This document shows, piece after piece, positions 4,014 to 29,650 of a DNA stretch of 64,000 nucleotides. Location: NCBI GenBank assembly GCA_963727895.1, contig CAVSHT010000008.1, positions 64,001 to 128,000 of the forward strand, read 5' to 3'. Position 1 is the first letter of the stretch; each line of letters begins with the position of its first letter. A program made the position numbers and the translations under genes. The notes under the pieces were generated by a model. That model was not told where the DNA came from. It searched no databases and saw nothing but the letters and a program-made list of their open reading frames with translations. This DNA is from an uncultured Methanosarcinaceae archaeon (GTDB taxonomy: Archaea > Halobacteriota > Methanosarcinia > Methanosarcinales > Methanosarcinaceae).

Positions 4014-4628
4014 ATGATTATAACTTCAGCAAAACCCCTTGAAGAAATCCTGTCCCTATTAAAAGATGAAGATGATATATTCATTGTTGGATGCAACGTA
4101 TGCGCTGCAAAACTGAAGACTGGCGGAGAACCCGAAGTGCTTGAGATGTTCAGGCAGCTTGAGAATAATGGAAAACATGTAGTAGGCTGGGCTCTTCCTA
4201 CTGCAGCTTGCAGTGTTCGATCCTTTGACTCCCTTGTAGAGAAAAATGAAAAGATAAAGGAGGCGCGTTGTATATTGGTTATGGGTTGTGGCAGTGGAGT
4301 TTCAATAGTTTCCAATGTAACGGATGTTCCGGTGTTTGGTTCGAATAATACACTTTCTTTGGGAGGTTCAAGCGAGGGAAAACTGCTTTTAGACCAGTGT
4401 GCAATGTGTGGAACTTGTACTATTGGTGAGTTCGGAGGGATATGCCCCAAGGCTCAGTGCCCTAAAGGACTCCTAAATGGACCTTGTGGAGGATCTATTG
4501 ACGGGATGTGTGAGGTCAACAAAGAAAATGAATGTGTATGGGTTCGGATATATGAAAGATTAAAAAAAATTAAGAAGCTTGATCTTCTTTATACAATTCA
4601 TGCTCCTCAGGAACACGACATCAAATGA
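4014..4628 (+). CDS. MTHFR C-terminal-domain / MetV-like Cys-rich protein
   Basis: CxxCGxC, GGICP..CPKGLLNGPCGG...CEV....CVW motifs. Directly upstream of metF. Confidence 0.8.
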   Translation: MIITSAKPLEEILSLLKDEDDIFIVGCNVCAAKLKTGGEPEVLEMFRQLENNGKHVVGWALPTAACSVRSFDSLVEKNEKIKEARCILVMGCGSGVSIVSNVTDVPVFGSNNTLSLGGSSEGKLLLDQCAMCGTCTIGEFGGICPKAQCPKGLLNGPCGGSIDGMCEVNKENECVWVRIYERLKKIKKLDLLYTIHAPQEHDIK

Positions 4629-4965: not shown

Positions 4966-5844
4966 ATGCTTTTTAATTTTCGTGAAAAACTGAATTCCAA
5001 CAAATTTCTGGTTACTGCTGAAGTCTCCCCTCCGAAGGGCACAAGATTTTCAGTTCCTCTGGAAGATGCCCGCCAGCTCAAAGGCATTGCAGATGCTATA
5101 AACGTTACGGATAATCATTGCTCAATTATGCATATGAGTTCCCTGGCTTTTAGTAAGCTTCTGCTTGATGAAGGACATGAGCCTATTATGCAGCTTACAT
5201 GTCGGGATAGGAACAGGCTCGGACTTCAGTCAGATCTTCTGGGAGCTTATGCTTTAGGTATCCGAAATATCTGCTTGATGACAGGAGATTTTCCTTCTTG
5301 TGGGGATCATCCTGGTTCAAAGCCCGTATACGACCTTGACTCCGTACAGTTCCTGCAGCTTGTCCGAAAACTTGATTCAGGTATTAATTTTGCAGGAAGT
5401 AATCTGGATGGGAGTACTTCTTTCTGTACAGGCGCTGTTTCTGGTATCGATCCTAAAAAACCCCTGCAACTTATAAAACTTGAAAAGAAGGTCAGGTGTG
5501 GAGCTGATTTTATCCAGACGCAGGCGGTCTATGATGTGGGTATGTTTGAGGAGTTCATGGAAGCCATAAGCCATCTTGAAGTGCCTGTTATTGCAGGCTT
5601 GATTCCTCTTAAGTCTTTTAGTATGGCCGAATTTATGAATAAGAATATTTCGGGAATTAGTGTGCCTGAAGAAATTATGTTGCGCATAAAGCAGGCCTCT
5701 GATCCGATGGACGAAGGTCTTTCCATAGCTTCAGAGACTATAAAAGAGTTTATGAAACTCTCAAGAGGGGTTCATATTATGCCTGTAGGTTCTCACAAAA
5801 ATACCCCCAAACTACTTTCTATGGCTGGAATTTCCGAGAGTTAA
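4966..5844 (+). CDS. metF: Methylenetetrahydrofolate reductase
   Basis: Motifs AEVSPPKG, INVTDN, QLTCRDRNRLGLQSDLLGA, TGD, GADFIQTQ. Confidence 0.9.
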   Translation: MLFNFREKLNSNKFLVTAEVSPPKGTRFSVPLEDARQLKGIADAINVTDNHCSIMHMSSLAFSKLLLDEGHEPIMQLTCRDRNRLGLQSDLLGAYALGIRNICLMTGDFPSCGDHPGSKPVYDLDSVQFLQLVRKLDSGINFAGSNLDGSTSFCTGAVSGIDPKKPLQLIKLEKKVRCGADFIQTQAVYDVGMFEEFMEAISHLEVPVIAGLIPLKSFSMAEFMNKNISGISVPEEIMLRIKQASDPMDEGLSIASETIKEFMKLSRGVHIMPVGSHKNTPKLLSMAGISES

Positions 5845-20960: not shown

Positions 20961-21680
20961 TATTGTTGTTTCCTCTTTTCCATATAACTTAGGCAACCAT
21001 TCAATTTGAAAGAAAAATTACCATATAAATATATGCTTTTTTACCAGTATTAGACATATTTTCATAACTGACTAAGGGGTGTAAAGATCCAGAAAAAAAG
21101 TATCCAGTTATTATATTTCCATTTTAATCATAAAATATCTCCCCACAGGGAAAGATCAATTTTATCAAAAAAGCCCTGTGAAGGGCTCCTTTTAAACTCC
21201 TTTTGAATCTGCAATAATCGCGGGTTTTTTAGTTTATAGTGAGTTCATGTCTATTTATCTGAAATTTTAAATTGCCACGTACCTATCTCAGAATTAGGGT
21301 TTTATAACAGGTAATACCCATTTTACCAAAATTGTGAAAATAGCTAATATAATAATAAGCCATATTACCCAACTGGGTAAGTTTTCGGGTGTTTCAACCA
21401 TAATAATAGATATTTCAGAATCATATAAAAAGACGTATAGATAGATTACTCCAACTTACCTTTTTCGAATCAATTTTAAGTTACCTGGAAAGGATATGAA
21501 AAAATTTTCATCTCTTATTAAGCGATCCATTTTCTGGCTATTTTCTTTAGTTTATAATTAACTTGAAAAATTTCCTTAAATCAGACAAATATCTAAAAAC
21601 ATATTTAGTGGAGATTCCAGCAGACAGCCAGCAGGAAAAATATCTAAAAACTGAATTCAATATCAATGGACTTGAATTCT

Positions 21681-21914
21681 TCACAAGTCCTTTTCTCCAA
21701 GCCACTCTTCTCTTGAAATACGAGATTGTTTAAGAATCCTTGTTAGAAGATCAATCCCAATTGCACCCTTATGTGGATTGGGAATCGTTAAAACAAGATC
21801 TCCTTTTCTCATAAAAGGATGCTTTCCGCCAGAATAAGATCCTTCAAATCCCAGTTCTTGCAATCTTTTAACAAAGGTTCGCCAATCGACAGGGACCAGC
21901 TTAGACAATTGCAA
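21681..21914 (-). CDS. hicA: HicA-family toxin (mRNA interferase)
   Basis: LGF...GGKH.FM......TIPNPH....I...LL..IL motif. Overlaps hicB. Confidence 0.85.
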   Translation of the reverse strand: MQLSKLVPVDWRTFVKRLQELGFEGSYSGGKHPFMRKGDLVLTIPNPHKGAIGIDLLTRILKQSRISREEWLGEKDL

Positions 21915-22152
21915 TATCTCCTGGTTCTTTGATTACATAGTCCCCGATCCGTGGCAGAGGTAGTCCATTTCTCAATCTGATAACGATCCATTCATCAATG
22001 ACTTCTTCCAAGTTTCTACGACATTCTTCAAGTGTCTTGCCTGTAGCCCATACACCCTCAAGTTCGGGAACTTCTCCATAATAAGGTTCTTCGTCATCGA
22101 TTATTTCGTATTTTGCTCTTTCAAGAGCCGCGTGGATATACTGGATGAGCAT
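21901..22152 (-). CDS. hicB: HicB-family antitoxin (short, no DNA-binding domain)
   Basis: YYGEVPELEGVWATGKTLEECRRNLEE...W...L...LP motif. Confidence 0.85.
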   Translation of the reverse strand: MLIQYIHAALERAKYEIIDDEEPYYGEVPELEGVWATGKTLEECRRNLEEVIDEWIVIRLRNGLPLPRIGDYVIKEPGDIAIV

Positions 22153-22434
22153 AATTACACCTTTCCGAACTGATATATTTAGTTTTATACTGTTTAAATC
22201 TTATATAGGTTATGCGAATCGGGTTAGATCTGTAAGAATTACAGTCTTTAATTTCTCTTTTCTTGACAATTGTATTCGGGGAAAATTTCAGCAGACCATC
22301 GGCTGGAGAAATATATTAAAACTGAACGTGAAGAAAAGCTCACTTAAAAGTATATTCATAATTTATGTGAATTTTAAAAAAATAGAAAAAAAATAAGATA
22401 AGTGTTGATGCAAACTTAATTGCAGAAATAACAC

Positions 22435-22623
22435 TTAGTATCTTCTGTTTTCTCTGGGCGTCCTGTGGTTAGGAAGACAATCCCTGCAATAAACTGGTCT
22501 TTCTGGGTCAGGTTTGAAAGGCACTTCTGTCTCAACATTGCAGTCTGAACAGGTTGCTTTGTGCATTTCTCTTGGAGCGCCGAAATTAGAATTTCCTCTG
22601 AAGTTACTGTCATTAAAAGCCAT
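22435..22623 (-). CDS. CxxC-x17-CxxC zinc-ribbon small protein, copy A
   Basis: CSDC...EVPFKPDPERPVYCRDC, SD AGGTGA, RG/N-rich N-terminus. Confidence 0.9.
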   Translation of the reverse strand: MAFNDSNFRGNSNFGAPREMHKATCSDCNVETEVPFKPDPERPVYCRDCLPNHRTPRENRRY

Positions 22624-22675
22624 TTTTGTTTCACCTTTGTTTTTAGTTTTTGTTTTAGTTTTTATTAATTGTTTT

Positions 22676-22760
22676 AAAATAAGATTGTATAGAACTCTTT
22701 GATTAAAAACAAAAGTTGGTTTTTAATAACAGATTATTATACATCTCTTTATTTGTCAAT
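22676..22760 (-). promoter_or_regulatory. Conserved structured 5' leader, copy 1
   Basis: Long stem with apical AUUAAAAAC-CAACUUUU-GUUUUUAAU. Starts ~20-25 nt downstream of a TTTATATA box. Confidence 0.65.
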
Positions 22761-23192
22761 ATATATATAGCACTTAAACTATATAAATCTATTTATAAAC
22801 ATAGAGCACAATTTCTCAAATGAGAACAATTTCCAGATATAGTTTGCAGAAGAAGCAACAACCTATTTTCTGAGAACTCCTGAAAACAGAATTTGGTTAA
22901 CAGTTTTCCACTTTTGAAACAATCCTATAACAGAAAAAAATCAGTTTGATCTAAAAAAGCTGCCCTGCAAAGTGTCTCTCTTAAATCTACTAAAATAGCG
23001 GGTTTTTCAATTTCACTTTGATTCTTAAAAAACGTTTTCGGAGAGATTTCAGCATGCCGCCGGCAGAAAAATATATTTTAACTGAATCAAACGTGACAAA
23101 GAGTCCAGTTACAAAAGATATTCCACATTTGGTTTATTTTAAAAAATGGAAATGAAAAAAGTGTTGATGTAAACTTAGTTAACAAATAATAT

Positions 23193-23390
23193 TTAGTATC
23201 TATCTTGTCTGGGTTTTCTGTGTTTAGGAAGACATTCTCTACAGTAAACCGGTCTTTCCGGGTCAGGTTCAAAAGGTACTTCGGTTTCAACACCACAATC
23301 AGAACATTTTGTCTTGTGCATTTCCCTGGGAGCTCCAAAGCCTCCACGGTTGCTGTCTCTTCCTCTGCTTCCTCTGTCATTAAAGGCCAT
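23193..23390 (-). CDS. CxxC-x17-CxxC zinc-ribbon small protein, copy B
   Basis: CSDC...VPFEPDPERPVYCREC, SD AGGTGA. Confidence 0.9.
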   Translation of the reverse strand: MAFNDRGSRGRDSNRGGFGAPREMHKTKCSDCGVETEVPFEPDPERPVYCRECLPKHRKPRQDRY

Positions 23391-23428
23391 TTGTTTTCAC
23401 CTTTGGTTTTAGTTGTTAGTTGTTGCTG

Positions 23429-23513
23429 AAAAATAAGATTGTATACGACTCTTTGGTTAAAAACAAAAATTGGTTTTTAACGACAGATTGTCATACATCT
23501 CTTTATTTTCAAT
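23429..23513 (-). promoter_or_regulatory. Conserved structured 5' leader, copy 2
   Basis: GUUAAAAAC-CAAUUUUU-GUUUUUAAC. G-C replaces the A-U pair of copy 1. Confidence 0.65.
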
Positions 23514-24009
23514 ATCTATACATTGCATTTAAAATATATAAGTATTCCTATAATTATAAAAATATTTTCATTTAAATGAAAGAAAAATTTGTGATCAGGG
23601 TTTCTGGAGTAGATAAAATGCCTAAAATTCCAATTCCGGCTGATTATCCGATAAAGCAAAATTGTTGACCCTGCAAAATGTTATCTTTTAAACCTGCAAA
23701 AATTACGGGTTTTTTAGCTCTCTTTTCTTAGCAAATGTATAAGGGAAGATTTCAGAAGACCCGCGGCAGGAAAATTATCTCTAAATAGAAGAGGAAGTAA
23801 TAAACGAAATTTCAGCGTCCTTCTTTAGCAATTATAGACATTAAGTGCAAAATATATAAACAACTCATTGTCTATAGAACTTCTCCATGTCAACGCAGAC
23901 GCGTTCCTGCAGAAAAGTGAAATATATATTTCAGGCATCTTTTTTAGACGCCTTTATTTCAGATACCTATATAAAGCATCTTTATTCTGATACTTTTAGA
24001 TCAATAAAA

Positions 24010-24363
24010 TCAATACGTAATGTAGCCTTTTCGCTCAAGCCATTCGACCTGGGGTCTTGTGTATTTCCAGGTTACTTCGGCTTTGGAGTCTTGGACTTCC
24101 CAGGGATTGGCTATGACAACATCGCCTTCGTGAATCCACATTCTCTTCTTTTTAGAGCCCGGTATCCTTCCCATGCGGACAATTCCATCCATACACTGAA
24201 GTGTTACCCTTTTCGAGCCGAGTAAACATGCAACTGTTGCCAGGACTTCATTTCTATCCTTGCGGGGGATTCGTACCCTGGATACTTCCTGGGTACTTCC
24301 TGAGTTTACCGGTTTTGATGATCCTAATCTTCTTTTTCTGATAGTGCTTCTATAATTAGCCAG
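24010..24363 (-). CDS. eif1a: Translation initiation factor aIF-1A, paralogue 1, probable CTG start (117 aa)
   Basis: RVRIP...EVLATV..LLGSKRV..QCMDG..RMGRIPG..KKRMWI.EGD.V...PWE.QD.KA...WKYTR.Q..WL..KGY. SD GAGG 7 nt upstream of CTG GCT AAT. Confidence 0.92.
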
Positions 24364-24587
24364 GTTAATTCCTCGTTGGTATACTTTGATTAATTTTTGT
24401 AAAAGTTTGCTGTTGGGCAATTTGTACAGGTTCTCATTCTCGATATCGTTTTGTTCTTATTTTTCCTTGCCGCATGAGGGTGGAATAAATAAAGAAACAA
24501 AGAGAATAAACCAAAAAACAAAAAGAAAAGATGAATCAGGAGTTAATGTAAAATAATTACAAAATTAACGCCTAATACAGATTATCT

Positions 24588-24770
24588 TTAGAACTTCCTG
24601 TGGTTAGGAAGACAATCTCTGCAGTATACTGGCCTGCCTTCTGTGGGTTTGAACGGTACTTCGGTCTCAACACCGCAGTCAGAACAGGTCACTTTTGTCA
24701 TTTCCCTTGGTCCGCTGTTACCGCGGAAACCTCCGGAATTTCCCCTGAAATTTCTGTCATTAAAAGCCAT
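24588..24770 (-). CDS. CxxC-x17-CxxC zinc-ribbon small protein, copy C
   Basis: CSDC...VPFKPTEGRPVYCRDC, SD GGAGGTGA. Confidence 0.9.
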   Translation of the reverse strand: MAFNDRNFRGNSGGFRGNSGPREMTKVTCSDCGVETEVPFKPTEGRPVYCRDCLPNHRKF

Positions 24771-24809
24771 TTTCGTTTCACCTCCGCTCTAGCGGATAGT
24801 CAATAGTTT

Positions 24810-24890
24810 AAAAACAAGATTGTATAGACCCCTTGATTAAAAACGAAAATTGGTTTTTAATAACAGATTATACGTCTCTTTATTTTCAAT
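24810..24890 (-). promoter_or_regulatory. Conserved structured 5' leader, copy 3
   Basis: Same stem-loop as copies 1 and 2, with a TATA box at ~24911-24919. Confidence 0.65.
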
Positions 24891-24936
24891 ACATACACTA
24901 TACATTCAAATTATATAAATGCATCTATACAATATA

Positions 24937-26760
24937 TAGTCACCACTTTAAATAATGCGACATTTTATGTTTAAATGTATGTTTCTCCCAAAATTCATTC
25001 ATTTCTTCCTTTAATGCTTCAATATTTTTAAATGATTTTATTGACGTTAAGTTTTCTCTTGTCACTTTCCAACAGTATTTTGTTGGGTTTCTATCTGGAG
25101 TAGCTGGAGGGAAAAATATTATTTTCAACCAATGCTTATTATTTTGATAAAATTCCTTTGCCTTTGCTGATCTATGCCATGTAGCTCTGTCCAGTAAAAG
25201 AAATATCCTTATCCCTATATCTCTTTGAAACTTGATTAATGATTTTAAGTAAGAGTCTGTATTCTGTGTAATTCCTAAATCATACCAATAAAACTCTCCA
25301 TTTTCAGTGTAGAATCCCCCAATATTGATTTTTGCTTTTGAACCACTTGTAAATTTAATAGGTTTTGAGCCCTTTATTGCCCAACATCTGGATCTATTTG
25401 AATCCACACAAAAATTACTGGAATTGGTAATTAAAAATAGATATATGTGCTTATAACATATATTTCTTCATGAACTGCCCAAAATGTAATAGTTCCAGTC
25501 ACAAAAAGAATGGTATAGTTGGTGGTCGTCAAAGGTACAAATGCCATGATTGTGGATATAACTATACAGTAGAGCTAAAATCAACTGCTTTTTCCACTTA
25601 TGTAAAAAAACAGGCTTTACAACTTTACCTTGAAGGATTGGGCTTTCGTTCAATAGGAAGAGTTTTAGGGGTGAGTCATGTTTCTGTCCAAAGATGGATC
25701 AAGAAATTTGGTCAGGAGTTAGAGGACCTAAAAAGTGAAAATGAAATATCTATTGTTGAAATGGATGAAATGCACACTTACATCGGTAACAAACAAAATA
25801 TTGCTGGATCTGGATTGCTGTTGATAGAGTTGAGAAAAAGTTCATCAGCTGCTCTTTTGGCAGCAGAGGAACGGAAACTGGAAAATTACTCTGGGAAAAA
25901 TTGAAGAAAAAAGAGATTGGAGAAGTGATGACAGATCACTGGAGAGCATATGCAGAGTTTCTTCCTGAAACGATTCATACTCAATCCAAAGCAGAAACGT
26001 ATACTGTTGAAGGATATAACAGCATATTGAGGCACTTTCTGGCAAGGTTGAGAAGAAAGACAAAGTGTTATACGAAGAGTCTTGAAATGCTAAAGTACTC
26101 GGTTATTCTATTGATGAAATACAGAAATAAAGAACTAGATATATTTAGATAACAATACCAAATTACTTTCATCAGGGGTAACGAATAAATGATTAGGGTT
26201 TAGTAATCTGTTTTTTGGACTTCTCTTATGAATTATTTTTTAAGCACCTCATTTCTTCTTTTAGATTGAGGTCGACATGTGATTTTTCTCAACCCTAAAT
26301 TTTTTAAAATTTGTCTCATTCTTGATTTGGAATAAGATACTCCAAATTTTTCCTTGACAAATTGAACTGCATCTTTTGTTTGCCAACCACGAGAATAAAC
26401 ATCATCTGTTGGTATAGGTTCTAAAAATGCCTCTCTTAACTCAGATAATTGTTCTGCAGTTAAAAAAGACTTGATTCCTCGACCAGGTTTACATTTAAGA
26501 CTAAACAAACCGTCGGTTTCAGCTCGTTTTATCCAGCGATGAACAGTTGAACGGTGAACTGAAAAATCGTCGGCAACTTTAGCGGGACTCAAACCATTTT
26601 TGATCAATAATAAGGCTTGAAGTTTAATCTACACGTTTTTGTTACAGGAATTTATGATAGCTGTAGAAATATCAGAAGTTGTAAACATTTCCAAACTCAT
26701 ATATAAAATTATATACTCATTTCAGGTATAATAATGTTGCAGTAAATACAGAGGTGACTA
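24937..26760 (-). mobile_element. IS630-family element (TA TSD), interrupted by IS1 copy 4; transposase is a pseudogene
   Basis: TIR TAGTCACC...GGTGACTA flanked by TA. HTH ORF plus DDE ORF (DES, LDRATWH, PD.NP). In-frame TAG near 26630. Confidence 0.88.
25420..26159 (+). mobile_element. IS1-family element copy 4 (740 bp), nested in IS630, 8-bp TSD AAATTACT
   Basis: TSD at 25412-25419 and 26160-26167. The uninterrupted IS630 sequence is present in the second copy near 39760. Confidence 0.93.
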
Positions 26761-27173
26761 TAGTACACAACTTCTCAAAAAAGAGAATTTATTTAAAAAT
26801 AATTTATGGAGAAGATAACAGCTTATTTCCTGATAGCTCCTGAAAACAGAATTCAGTTAACAGGTTTACTGGAAAGCAGCTCTACAAAGGAAAAGATCAC
26901 TGCTATCAAAAAAGGCCCTTCAAAATGCTTCTTATAAACCTGCAAAAATCACGGGTTTTCAAGATTTCTTTTATTAACAACCATACTCGGGGAATATTCC
27001 GGCAAGTTGCCGGCAGAAAAATATATTAACTGAATTAAACGTGAAAAAGAGGTTATTTAAATAGTATTTCTGGATTAATGTAACCTTCAAAATAGTATTT
27101 CTAGGTTAATGTGATTTTTAAAAAAGTGAAAAAGAAATAAGTGTTGATGCAAACTTAATTGCAGAAATAACAC

Positions 27174-27362
27174 TTAGTATCTTCTGTTTTCTCTGGGAGT
27201 CCTGTGGTTAGGAAGACATTCTCTGCAGTAAACCGGTCTTTCTGGGTCAGGTTTAAAAGGCACTTCGGTTTCAACACCACAATCAGAACAGGTTGTCTTA
27301 TGCATTTCTCTTGGAGCACCGAAATTAGAATTTCCTCTGAAGTTTCTGTCATTAAAAGCCAT
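27174..27362 (-). CDS. CxxC-x17-CxxC zinc-ribbon small protein, copy A'
   Basis: Near-identical to copy A. Confidence 0.9.
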   Translation of the reverse strand: MAFNDRNFRGNSNFGAPREMHKTTCSDCGVETEVPFKPDPERPVYCRECLPNHRTPRENRRY

Positions 27363-27413
27363 TTTTGTTTCACCTTTGTTTTATTTTTTGTTTTAGTTTT
27401 TATTAATTGTTTT

Positions 27414-27498
27414 AAAATAAGATTGTATAGAACTTTCTGTTTAAAATCAAAAATTGGTTTTTAACAACAGATGATTATACGGATCTTTATTTATCAAC
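27414..27498 (-). promoter_or_regulatory. Conserved structured 5' leader, copy 4
   Basis: Same fold, with UCUGUU/AACAGA pairing in the middle stem. Confidence 0.6.
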
Positions 27499-27811
27499 AC
27501 ACGTACATGAATCTTAATATATATAAATTTTTCTATAAGGGGAGAACCTTCCTCAAATGAGAACCTATCTTAGATACAGAGCTTATAGAACAAATAAAAA
27601 TGCCCCTTATATTCTGATTCCAGATGATCATTGATAAAGCAAATCTGAAGGTACTGCAAACACTCTCCCAAAATTGTATATAGAACCTTGCTCACATCAA
27701 CATTAGATATATTCCTGCAGAAAAGTAAAATGATGGGTTTCAGGCATCTTTTTCAGACACCTCTATTTCAATTATTTATTATTATATTCGGCATTTTTAT
27801 AATTTAAAAAC

Positions 27812-28162
27812 TTATTTAATATAGCCTTTCCGTTCGAGCCATTCTATCTGGGGCCTTGTGTATTTCCAGGTTATTTCGGCTTTGGAGTCCTGAATTTCCC
27901 ACGGGTTAGCAATAACAATATCGCCTTCACGAATCCACATTTTTTTATGTTTAGAGCCTGGGATTCTACCCATTCGTACAACTCCGTCCATACACTGAAG
28001 TGTTACTCTTTTCGAACCGAGTAAACACGCAACCGTTGCCAGGACTTCATTTCTGTCCTTGCGAGGGATTCTTACTCTGGATACTTCAGGGGCATCTCCT
28101 GATCTTACGGGATTTGTCGACCCTAATCTTTTTTTTCGAATAGTGCTTCTGTAATTCGCCAG
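27812..28162 (-). CDS. eif1a: Translation initiation factor aIF-1A, paralogue 2, probable CTG start (116 aa). Absent from the ORF track.
   Basis: Hand translation: (M)[123 protein letters not shown] upstream of CTG. Confidence 0.9.
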
Positions 28163-28406
28163 GTTAATTTCTCCTTGAGGATCTTGATTTAATTTGGATC
28201 TTGATTTAATTTATATCTAACTTGAAAATTGAATAGTTCGCATCGATTATTGTTCTCTATATTGTTTTGTTCTTACTTTTTCTGCTTCGATAGTGAAAAT
28301 AAGTAGAGAAACAAAGAGAACAAACCAAAAAAAACAAAAAGAAAAGATGAATCAGGGATTAATGTAAAACTTAATTACAAATTAATAGCACCTGATGCAG
28401 ATTATC

Positions 28407-28589
28407 TTAGAATTTCCTGTGGTTAGGAAGACAGTCTCTGCAGTATACTGGCCTACCTTCGGTGGGTTTGAATGGTACTTCTGTCTCAACACCGCAGTCG
28501 GAACAGGTCACTTTTGTCATTTCCCTTGGTCCGCTGTTACCGCGGAAACCTCCGGAATTTCCCCTGAAATTTCTGTCATTAAAAGCCAT
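28407..28589 (-). CDS. CxxC-x17-CxxC zinc-ribbon small protein, copy C'
   Basis: Protein identical to copy C, with synonymous differences only. Confidence 0.9.
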   Translation of the reverse strand: MAFNDRNFRGNSGGFRGNSGPREMTKVTCSDCGVETEVPFKPTEGRPVYCRDCLPNHRKF

Positions 28590-28628
28590 TTTCGTTTCAC
28601 CTCCGCTCTAGCGGATAGTCAATAGTTT

Positions 28629-28710
28629 AAAAACAAGATTGTATATACCTTTAAATTAAAAAACAAAAATTGGTTTTTAATAACAGATTATACGTCTCTT
28701 TATTTTCAAT
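28629..28710 (-). promoter_or_regulatory. Conserved structured 5' leader, copy 5
   Basis: Same motif, with a TATA box at ~28731-28739. Confidence 0.6.
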
Positions 28711-28949
28711 AGATACCTTACACAGGCAAATTATATAAATGCATCTATACAAAGGAATATACTATTAAAGTGATAAGAAATTTTATTGTCAGTATTTATG
28801 GACGAAGTACTAAAGTCTAAACTTCTTATTTCGGTTGTTCATAGCTAAAGCAAAGTCAATTTTCTCTGAAAAGGGCTCCTTATAAATTCGCAAAAAGAAG
28901 CATAAACTAATACAAAAATTGAAATTTACAGATATTTTTACAAGTCAGG

Positions 28950-29650
28950 TCAGAGAACCAATTCACCCTTTATCCAAAGTTCATCAAATTTTGTCTTGAA
29001 TCGCTTTGCATATGATTCATCATATATTCTTGTCATACCGAGGTTTCTACTTATATTGAACTGGTCTTCAATATCTAGCAGGGTTATCTTAGAATCAATG
29101 ATTGCAAAATTGTATTCGGTTTCTATAATTTTTACTTCCATTATATCCTTAATATGGTGTTTAAATGACATATCTTCTATTAAATCAATAAGCTCTTTTA
29201 ATGATGGCAGTAATTGTGATCTCGGATCTAAAATTTTAACTTTTATGCCACGCTGTACTAAACTCAAATAAGCTTTGCAAAAGGTGGATATTGAAGCATC
29301 ATATAGCTCCGATCCTCCTGGCTTGTACTTAACATGGATTACAAAACATATTTCATGCTCGATTTTCTCAAAAGATGAAGTTACCATTAGATGAAGTTAC
29401 CATTTCTTTTAGTTCATTATTACGAAGCCTGTCAGGCCAGAAGACAGTTTCAACATTTTGTGGTAAATTGTCGTTGCAAAGTTCCCTTTCTATTTCATCA
29501 AATGTTTCTTTGAGCATTTTGAGTTCATTGAGTGTTTCTTCCTCTTTTCTTTTGTACATGAGTTTAAATGCGCTTTTAGGATCAACCGCCTGGTATCTCT
29601 TTGGTCGCAACGGTTGGATTTCGACAAGCTCATAGCTTTTGAGGACTTTG
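28950..29650 (-). pseudogene. TrmB-family transcriptional regulator, 5'-truncated and frameshifted
   Basis: LVEIQ..RPKRYQAVDP motif and a C-terminal FAIID...F..LW domain. A 16-bp duplication at 29373-29404 shifts the frame. Confidence 0.7.

Follow-up and report, generated by a model that had tools for sequence, protein, structure and literature searches.

The 64,000-nucleotide (nt) stretch of DNA analysed here (the window; G000:C8:64001-128000) belongs to a Methanosarcina genome that is 84% complete and carries an array of five genes for small CxxC-x17-CxxC zinc proteins (A, B, C, A' and C') and two genes for paralogues of the archaeal initiation factor aIF-1A. The main new fact is that zinc-protein genes of this family are linked to extra copies of aIF-1A, a pairing that arose at least three times. 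Also new are a conserved leader, metatranscriptome contigs running from a CxxC gene into an aIF-1A gene, and the start codon of aIF-1A. A preliminary description of the array had proposed a role in translational control; a tie to translation gains real support from the repeated origin of the linkage and also from the contigs.

Linkage of CxxC genes to extra copies of aIF-1A

Seven CxxC genes and four aIF-1A genes were found in this genome. All seven CxxC genes lie beside three of the aIF-1A genes, five of them in the window and two on contig C5. The fourth aIF-1A gene, on contig C15, is flanked by genes for a Rio kinase and a KH protein and represents the housekeeping copy. The two copies in the window are outside this canonical Rio kinase/KH context and lie between CxxC genes. 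The second cassette (G000:C5:241679-243560) comprises a plus-strand CxxC gene followed by a minus-strand aIF-1A paralogue and a minus-strand CxxC gene, with the same leader; it corresponds to a distinct orthologue group (MSFND type) in other species.

As the preliminary description had expected, a synteny survey showed the cluster to be widespread in the genus: the CxxC family was present in 24 of 24 other congeneric genomes searched, with 2-16 copies in each, and linked to extra aIF-1A copies. Linkage was counted over genomes G000-G024, with aIF-1A genes scoring under 72 bits taken as paralogue-type (64 paralogue-type and 22 housekeeping-type genes); the counts are lower bounds, 49 weaker CxxC matches not being listed. 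Among the matches listed, at least 56 of the 64 paralogue-type genes had a CxxC gene within 1.5 kb, and for at least 52 a CxxC gene was located upstream on the same strand, at 447-1187 nt from start to start. One of the 22 housekeeping-type genes had a listed CxxC gene within 1.5 kb, upstream on the same strand, and this aIF-1A gene is probably a paralogue. Counted from the zinc proteins, 99 of 131 listed CxxC matches were situated no more than 3 kb from an aIF-1A gene.

Across the archaea, an aIF-1A gene was found in 16 of 78 CxxC loci, within 1.5 kb in 15 of them. The linked loci include one of the Methanocellaceae, in which the CxxC gene precedes aIF-1A, and six of Methanoregula, in which aIF-1A precedes the CxxC gene. 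In the family labelled f15, a CxxC gene was located directly upstream of an aIF-1A copy in all five genomes.

A quick maximum-likelihood tree was computed from 83 aIF-1A sequences, which are short (89 columns), the thorough search being incomplete. The linked Methanosarcina copies formed one clade inside the Methanosarcina clade, with a support of 100 in the Shimodaira-Hasegawa-like approximate likelihood-ratio test (SH-aLRT); the linked Methanoregula copies formed a separate clade (SH-aLRT 99), and the linked Methanocellaceae copies fell within their own family. The well-supported branches force at least three changes of the linked label. Since the linked copies belong to separate aIF-1A clades, the pairing arose at least three times, and the best argument for joint action of the CxxC protein and aIF-1A is that the same gene pair formed independently each time. 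Almost every conserved aIF-1A residue is retained in the paralogues (mean column identity, 73%; 40 invariant columns). Prediction of a complex between an aIF-1A paralogue and the C protein scored 0.00, which is no answer and evidence neither way.

Start codon of the aIF-1A genes

None of the four aIF-1A genes of the genome has a conserved ATG, GTG or TTG before the conserved core, and paralogue 2 of the window has none of these codons at all from the upstream stop as far as residue 59, counted from the C-terminus. In all four copies, GAGGA, GGAGA or GAGGT is followed by 6 nt and then CTG; the conservation of this Shine-Dalgarno-CTG arrangement does not extend to the sequence upstream of it. 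In other Methanosarcina loci, each of the 18 full-length paralogue copies read showed the arrangement, which was also found in 19 of 20 housekeeping or single-copy aIF-1A genes from six families of the order, and in most of the non-halophile families sampled from the phylum, with CTG or TTG located 5-7 nt after the Shine-Dalgarno site (loci L008-L091).

The start survey covered this phylum and comprised 87 distinct upstream regions, for which a script picked CTG in 62, TTG in 9, ATG in 4, ATT in 3, ATA in 1 and no start in 8; two of the ATG picks (L077 and L087) were CTG by eye. CTT, CTC and CTA occurred at the start in none of the 87 regions, and the conserved feature is therefore NTG and not a leucine codon. 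A stop codon was present 3-4 codons upstream of the CTG in several loci. GC-rich, haloarchaeon-like loci had ATG and lacked a Shine-Dalgarno site, and the divergent CxxC-linked paralogues of Methanoregula had an apparent ATT, ATC or ATA start 8 nt after GGAG (L115, L119, L121, L122, L126 and L127). The aIF1 gene of the present genome has an ordinary ATG, and in Methanosarcina mazei ATG starts 79% of the long genes, according to the accessible part of PMC11456600. A genome-wide count of NTG codons preceded by Shine-Dalgarno sites, tried as a control, was swamped by internal leucine codons and proved uninformative.

The aIF-1A genes are probably translated from a CUG codon, a non-AUG start that the preliminary description had missed. 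In the NCBI annotation the same genes begin with MANYRS... (from CTG) or MRK... (from ATH), and these inconsistent N-termini can be attributed to the conserved non-AUG start. No report of a non-AUG start of an aIF-1A gene was found in the literature, including the accessible part of PMC4705826.

Promoters and leader of the CxxC genes

All seven CxxC genes, five in the array and two on contig C5, display a TTATATA box, a box some 17 nt in length that hardly varies, a pair of U-tracts and an (A/G)AGGTGAAA Shine-Dalgarno site, and the conserved leader is about 115 nt long. The earlier observation that each small gene has its own TATA box, a common leader and a strong Shine-Dalgarno site thus extends to all seven. 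No obvious TATA box was seen for the aIF-1A genes of the array. A third Methanosarcina CxxC type (MAFNDRGKPF...; L018, L019 and L020 in G004, G022 and G019, respectively) has another upstream region, without the common leader.

RNAalifold analysis of 22 C-type leaders from several species predicted four helices, namely a long AU-rich outer helix, an inner helix of 5 bp, an invariant 8-bp hairpin and a 6-bp hairpin with a 3' arm that extends over the initial bases of the Shine-Dalgarno site. This last hairpin is missing from the A and B types. With a fold derived from the tested alignment itself, 97.5% of the cells of the C-type leaders pair versus 45-57% when the partners are slid, and the covariation score is 0.168 versus 0.103 in shuffles, a value that none of the 500 shuffles attained. 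Changes on both sides occur in five pairs, a number reached by 28 of 500 shuffles, and one pair flips from U-A to A-U in 9 of 21 distinct rows. An Rfam search of 21500-29500 returned one chance-level microRNA match only, and no family fits the leader. A bacterial promoter and terminator scan, which does not apply to archaea, gave no terminators.

Transcription of the array

Four digester metatranscriptome runs yielded contigs 95-99% alike to the window. In all four runs, contigs link the coding sequences of C and aIF-1A by spanning the spacer between them (24236-24711 in X1 and X2, 24236-24675 in X3, and 24251-24675 in X4). Three of the four runs gave contigs that break off in adapter letters at 24870-24878, which places these ends 34-48 nt downstream of the C gene's TATA box; the region of gene B is covered from 23213/23241 to 23485/23513 in three of four runs. 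These data agree with a leader some 115 nt long and with transcription continuing into aIF-1A. The C gene and aIF-1A are thus probably co-transcribed, a point missed in the preliminary description, and the oligo-T tract in the spacer between them is probably a leaky archaeal terminator. Contigs also cover 23612-24009, downstream of aIF-1A. No evidence was drawn from the stretches lacking contigs, 22300-22477 and 23012-23189, or from gene A, which was covered thinly and in one run only.

Selection and age of the cassettes

Genes C and C' differ at 7 of 183 bases, all of them synonymous third-position changes, and the two proteins are identical. The chance that seven of seven changes are synonymous is about 2e-5 by simple arithmetic (S = 38, N = 142). 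The ratio of nonsynonymous to synonymous divergence (dN/dS) was 0-0.22 over the 10 CxxC pairs within the array, including 0.07 for A versus A', and 0.10 for the two aIF-1A genes. With all values well short of 1, the purifying selection proposed earlier was substantiated.

Synonymous divergence (dS) amounted to 0.21 for C and C', 0.47 for A and A', and 0.78 for the aIF-1A pair, and the same double unit is present in other Methanosarcina species. The duplicated [C-aIF1A-A/B] unit of the preliminary description is real; a recent duplication was rejected, since dS differs threefold among the parts of the unit and other species hold it, and the duplication is therefore old and predates the species. 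Including the leader, C and C' are 94% identical over 271 nt. Such near-identity points to gene conversion, very strong constraint, or both.

Gene content and rearrangement of the array

The order on the minus strand is C'-aIF1A'-A'-[IS630 split by IS1]-C-aIF1A-B-A (Table 1). Open reading frames and profiles bore out the earlier listing of five CxxC-x17-CxxC and two aIF-1A genes in the order C'-aIF1A'-A'-C-aIF1A-B-A once the insertion elements are taken out. The five CxxC proteins scored 68.3-73.5 bits on TIGR04272 (cut-off 36) and 63.4-69.4 bits on PF23477 (cut-off 27), and the two CxxC motifs, read directly, are spaced by exactly 17 residues in five of five translations. The aIF-1A paralogue 1 scored 161.7 bits on NF003085 (cut-off 92) and 120.1 bits on TIGR00523 (cut-off 102.9); paralogue 2 scored 111 bits on NF003085 (cut-off 92), as a 59-amino-acid (aa) fragment from ATG only. 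Of the seven genes that had been called intact, the five CxxC genes are whole, and the aIF-1A genes are whole only with translation from CTG. The decay ascribed to the neighbours holds for IS630, which is broken by IS1; the HicA/HicB and alcohol dehydrogenase genes are whole.

The IS630-family element was inserted at a TA dinucleotide (TA flanks), leaving the TATA box of C in place, and is bounded by 30-nt inverted repeats (24935-24964 and 26733-26762). Its two halves gave 90.9 and 86.2 bits; since the gene is in two pieces, neither reaches the 100-bit cut-off. Methanosarcina sp. UBA5 was identified as a near relative from a protein match of 98% identity, and its genome contains the empty site (locus L092), where positions 5623/5630 join what are 26765/24932 in the window. 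The gene order of UBA5 also differs (L092 6797-8180 versus window 22434-23685): aIF-1A and A have no B between them, and A is followed by a B-like gene. Such a difference suggests unequal crossing-over between the repeated leaders, and the array is still in flux.

Repeated segments of 30-50 nt (D6, D9, D12, D13 and D15) were observed at 22857-23103, 23684-23780 and 26817-27051, in the spacers downstream of B, aIF-1A and A'. An intact pair of genes for a HicA toxin and a HicB/UPF0150 antitoxin (21681-22152, minus strand) lies directly downstream of the array.

Table 1. Positions of the genes, leaders, spacers and insertion elements of the array in the window
Feature	Position	Strand	Details
CxxC gene A	22435-22623	-	62 aa; RG-containing N-tail, treble-clef zinc domain, basic C-tail; TIGR04272 68.3 bits, PF23477 64.1 bits
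Promoter/leader of A	22624-22786	-	TATA 22780-22786; conserved box 22719-22735; Shine-Dalgarno 22629-22637; without hairpin at Shine-Dalgarno
CxxC gene B	23193-23390	-	65 aa; TIGR04272 68.6 bits
Promoter/leader of B	23391-23541	-	TATA 23535-23541; conserved box 23473-23489; Shine-Dalgarno 23395-23403
aIF-1A paralogue 1	24010-24363	-	117 codons from CTG 24361-24363; GAGGA 6 nt upstream of CTG
C to aIF-1A spacer	24364-24587	-	oligo-T tract 24513-24529
CxxC gene C	24588-24770	-	60 aa, ends HRKF; TIGR04272 73.5 bits
Promoter/leader of C	24771-24918	-	TATA 24912-24918; conserved box 24853-24869; predicted hairpin 24783-24796 overlaps Shine-Dalgarno 24776-24784
CxxC gene A'	27174-27362	-	62 aa; TIGR04272 71.2 bits
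Promoter/leader of A'	27363-27526	-	TATA 27520-27526; Shine-Dalgarno 27368-27376
aIF-1A paralogue 2	27812-28162	-	116 codons from CTG 28160-28162; GGAGA upstream
C' to aIF-1A' spacer	28163-28406	-	oligo-T tract 28327-28345; repeats D7, D10
CxxC gene C'	28407-28589	-	60 aa; TIGR04272 73.5 bits
Promoter/leader of C'	28590-28738	-	TATA 28732-28738; conserved box 28673-28689; predicted hairpin 28602-28615 overlaps Shine-Dalgarno 28595-28603
IS630-family element	24935-26762	-	about 15 nt upstream of TATA box of C; halves 24940-25407 and 26233-26607; NF033545 and NF033558 partial matches
IS1-family element nested in IS630	~25470-26152	+	profile match

The CxxC-x17-CxxC protein family

The family comprises 3826 clusters at 50% identity (E <= 0.001) and is spread over methanogens, DPANN, Bathyarchaeota, Hadarchaeota and Thermoplasmatota, its members holding 1-5 copies of the domain. 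The zinc-ribbon fold assigned earlier was not upheld, as Pfam describes the domain (PF23477, zf_Tbcl_2) as a probable treble clef zinc finger. Conserved positions other than the cysteines include PREM, VPF-P and RPVYC, and most orthologues have RGG-rich N-tails. In the AlphaFold model of C, the mean predicted local distance difference test score (pLDDT) is 72, with 79-88 in the core and a disordered N-tail. Each CxxC domain of the array proteins is predicted to bind one zinc ion.

Longer homologues, 94 in number, carry PF23477, accompanied by PF13451 in about half and by PF24445 in four; the longer bacterial forms carry PF13451. No fusion to a helicase or a cold-shock protein (Csp) was found among the longer homologues scanned. 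The neighbours of CxxC genes outside the three linked lineages vary, with aminoacyl-tRNA synthetase genes in three of seven DPANN loci. CxxC genes adjoin ProRS, Trp/TyrRS and GluRS genes in L114, L133 and L168 (Woesearchaeota and Nanoarchaeota).

The preliminary description had called the family largely uncharacterised. This holds only in part: zinc binding and high abundance have already been demonstrated in M. mazei, where the accessible part of PMC12704099 reports eight abundant CxxC-x17-CxxC paralogues (A00070, A00184, A01980 and five more) belonging to the same family as the array genes. A00070, a 60-aa near-identical orthologue of C, was represented by 269 peptide-spectrum matches and detected intact by top-down mass spectrometry with the initiator Met removed, and A00184 and A01980 were found to bind zinc by means of ICP-MS (inductively coupled plasma mass spectrometry) (PMC12704099). 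In the accessible text of that paper no mention of aIF-1A neighbours, a common leader or a link to RNA was found, and the term "initiation factor" occurs 0 times.

Proposed mechanism

The anatomy of the array, purifying selection, repeated linkage, conservation of the leader and the lack of canonical aIF-1A starts are the established parts of what we regard as the best explanation. It is a two-part module, made up of a zinc protein and an aIF-1A paralogue, that would act on RNA or the 30S subunit and limit its own expression by autogenous control; we consider this reading about equally apt to be right or wrong. RNA or 30S binding, the partnership of the two proteins and the feedback are suggested by the genomic context.

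In this module, old and selectively maintained cassettes would each express the small gene from its own TATA promoter through the structured 5' leader of about 115 nt. The product would be a very abundant zinc binder with a treble-clef domain between a disordered RG/RGG N-tail and a basic C-tail. From the C-type gene, directly upstream of an extra aIF-1A gene, transcription would probably read through the leaky oligo-U tract into aIF-1A, and the paralogue would be translated from a strong Shine-Dalgarno site and a weak CUG start. The zinc protein and the aIF-1A paralogue, which has an OB-fold (oligonucleotide/oligosaccharide-binding fold), may then cooperate in acting on RNA, at the small ribosomal subunit or close to it, in tuning of initiation or as RNA chaperones. 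Expression may be limited at two points. The first would be the leader, in which a helix would cover part of the Shine-Dalgarno site and the two U-tracts could end transcription early. The second would be the near-cognate start of aIF-1A, by which synthesis of the factor would depend on the strictness of start selection, as in infC and eIF1.

Several observations weigh against this explanation. Most CxxC loci outside the three lineages, and 62 of the 78 archaea-wide, are without aIF-1A, and the other families of the order mostly have a single aIF-1A gene that does not adjoin a CxxC gene, the distance being about 8 kb in G027 and about 10 kb in G036. The leader fold was tested on its own source alignment, is AU-rich, and draws its covariation from few independent events. 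Contigs are no proof of one continuous transcript, and DNA may be present in an RNA library. One Methanosarcina paralogue (L103, Methanosarcina sp. fen_51, ~4500-4590) has TTA where the others have CTG or TTG; the cause may be a mistake in the assembly, loss of function of this copy or use of another start. No fusion of the zinc protein is informative, 86 of 87 longer representatives having PF23477 alone above the Pfam cut-off and one having PF13451 in addition. A Foldseek search with the C model against the PDB gave no match at E <= 0.001 and only generic PHD, LIM and MCM zinc fingers, and a profile search of PDB sequences gave only weak matches to LIM fingers (E 0.02). Finally, the M. mazei authors favour a role in transcription, as stated in the accessible part of PMC12704099.

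The array resembles three known systems in part. Like the leaders of ribosomal-protein operons, the C-type leader is conserved, is predicted to form a structure overlapping the Shine-Dalgarno site and precedes the gene of an abundant, probably RNA-binding protein; it differs in having no Rfam match and in that binding of the protein to its own leader is putative. The E. coli cspA-type genes encode small, abundant nucleic-acid-binding proteins, exist as several paralogues and have a long, structured regulatory 5' untranslated region. The array likewise has small abundant proteins, paralogues and long leaders, together with an OB-fold partner, aIF-1A, the homologue of IF1; the difference is that its small proteins have a zinc treble clef instead of a cold-shock domain. 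The third likeness is to infC, with its AUU start, and eIF1, with its poor start context, which are autoregulated through a weak start, and aIF1 has been reported to discriminate against AUU (accessible part of PMC4705826). As in those cases, an initiation-factor gene keeps a sub-optimal start signal across wide taxa (CTG in 62 of the 87 upstream regions, plus 2 by eye, and TTG in 9), and the Methanoregula paralogues linked to CxxC genes apparently use AUU, AUC or AUA, the same codon class as infC. The factor in the present case differs, being aIF-1A, a homologue of IF1/eIF1A and not the fidelity factor; the codon is mostly CUG, and the feedback is proposed from context.

Alternative explanations

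In a second reading, methanogens would set start-codon stringency through aIF-1A itself, by conserved near-cognate starts (CUG, UUG and AUH) behind very strong Shine-Dalgarno sites in every aIF-1A gene and by a feedback like that of infC and eIF1; the duplicated copies, repeatedly paired with the RGG zinc protein as a hitherto unrecognised initiation cofactor, would form alternative initiation complexes under the control of the new leader RNA. We regard this as possible but tentative.

It is rather doubtful that the array is a cold-shock analogue, as the preliminary description had suggested. The extra aIF-1A copies would then be Csp-like OB-fold RNA chaperones or antiterminators, and the RGG zinc proteins their co-chaperones, induced at low temperature through the leader as in cspA. 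Bacterial IF1 has RNA-chaperone activity, the long, conserved leaders with their predicted structure fit such a role, and the cold-shock domain PF00313 had no match in this genome (84% complete), nor in the Methanosarcina acetivorans control. The near-complete retention of conserved aIF-1A residues by the paralogues counts against it, as does the finding of neither a Csp nor a DEAD-box neighbour in the seven DPANN CxxC loci scanned. Searches of the literature found no expression data for these genes under changed temperature or stress, and the CxxC proteins are abundant in M. mazei under standard growth (PMC12704099, accessible part).

Another alternative is that the zinc proteins are transcription factors which act on RNA polymerase or the promoter, in the manner of the TFIIB zinc ribbon or a small polymerase subunit, the adjacency of aIF-1A being incidental. 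The M. mazei authors based this view on a CxxC spacing as in TFIIB/Brf and on one paralogue annotated as an RNA polymerase subunit, according to the accessible part of PMC12704099. The spacing motif is generic, however, and the CxxC proteins matched the TFIIB, TFS and Rpo families neither in Pfam or NCBIfam nor by fold or profile in the PDB. An aIF-1A linkage arisen at least three times and the aminoacyl-tRNA synthetase neighbours in three of seven DPANN loci also count against this role, which we consider unlikely.

Zinc buffering or storage, with many copies of a tiny and abundant zinc binder serving metal homeostasis, appears improbable as well. It would accord with the zinc binding measured by ICP-MS (PMC12704099, accessible part), with the 2-16 CxxC copies per genome in the genus and with a ZIP zinc transporter gene adjoining locus L120. 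A ZIP neighbour was found in only this 1 of 52 loci with neighbours scanned, though, and each domain would hold one zinc ion only; the strong conservation of PREM, VPF-P, RPVYC and the RG-rich tails, and the linkage to aIF-1A, are likewise at odds with buffering.

That the genes have no joint function and are neighbours through tandem duplication alone, in a recombination-prone cluster of duplicates, is very unlikely: repeated leaders invite unequal crossing-over, the gene order differs from that of UBA5 and an insertion element landed in the array, but the linkage is independent in three lineages, a CxxC gene lies upstream on the same strand of at least 52 of the 64 paralogue-type aIF-1A genes among the matches listed, and all array members are under purifying selection.

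Significance

Few small Methanosarcina proteins are detected with as much confidence as the CxxC-x17-CxxC proteins, and the repeated, independent pairing of these with an extra aIF-1A provides the first concrete and testable functional lead, towards translation or RNA handling. M. mazei and M. acetivorans, two genetically tractable species with existing Ribo-seq data, lend themselves to tests of both the two-part module and the start-codon feedback. The conserved non-AUG start of aIF-1A in the non-halophilic families sampled would, if true, give archaea a feedback loop comparable to those of infC and eIF1, and the occurrence of the pairing in three methanogen groups hints at an undescribed layer of control on translation.

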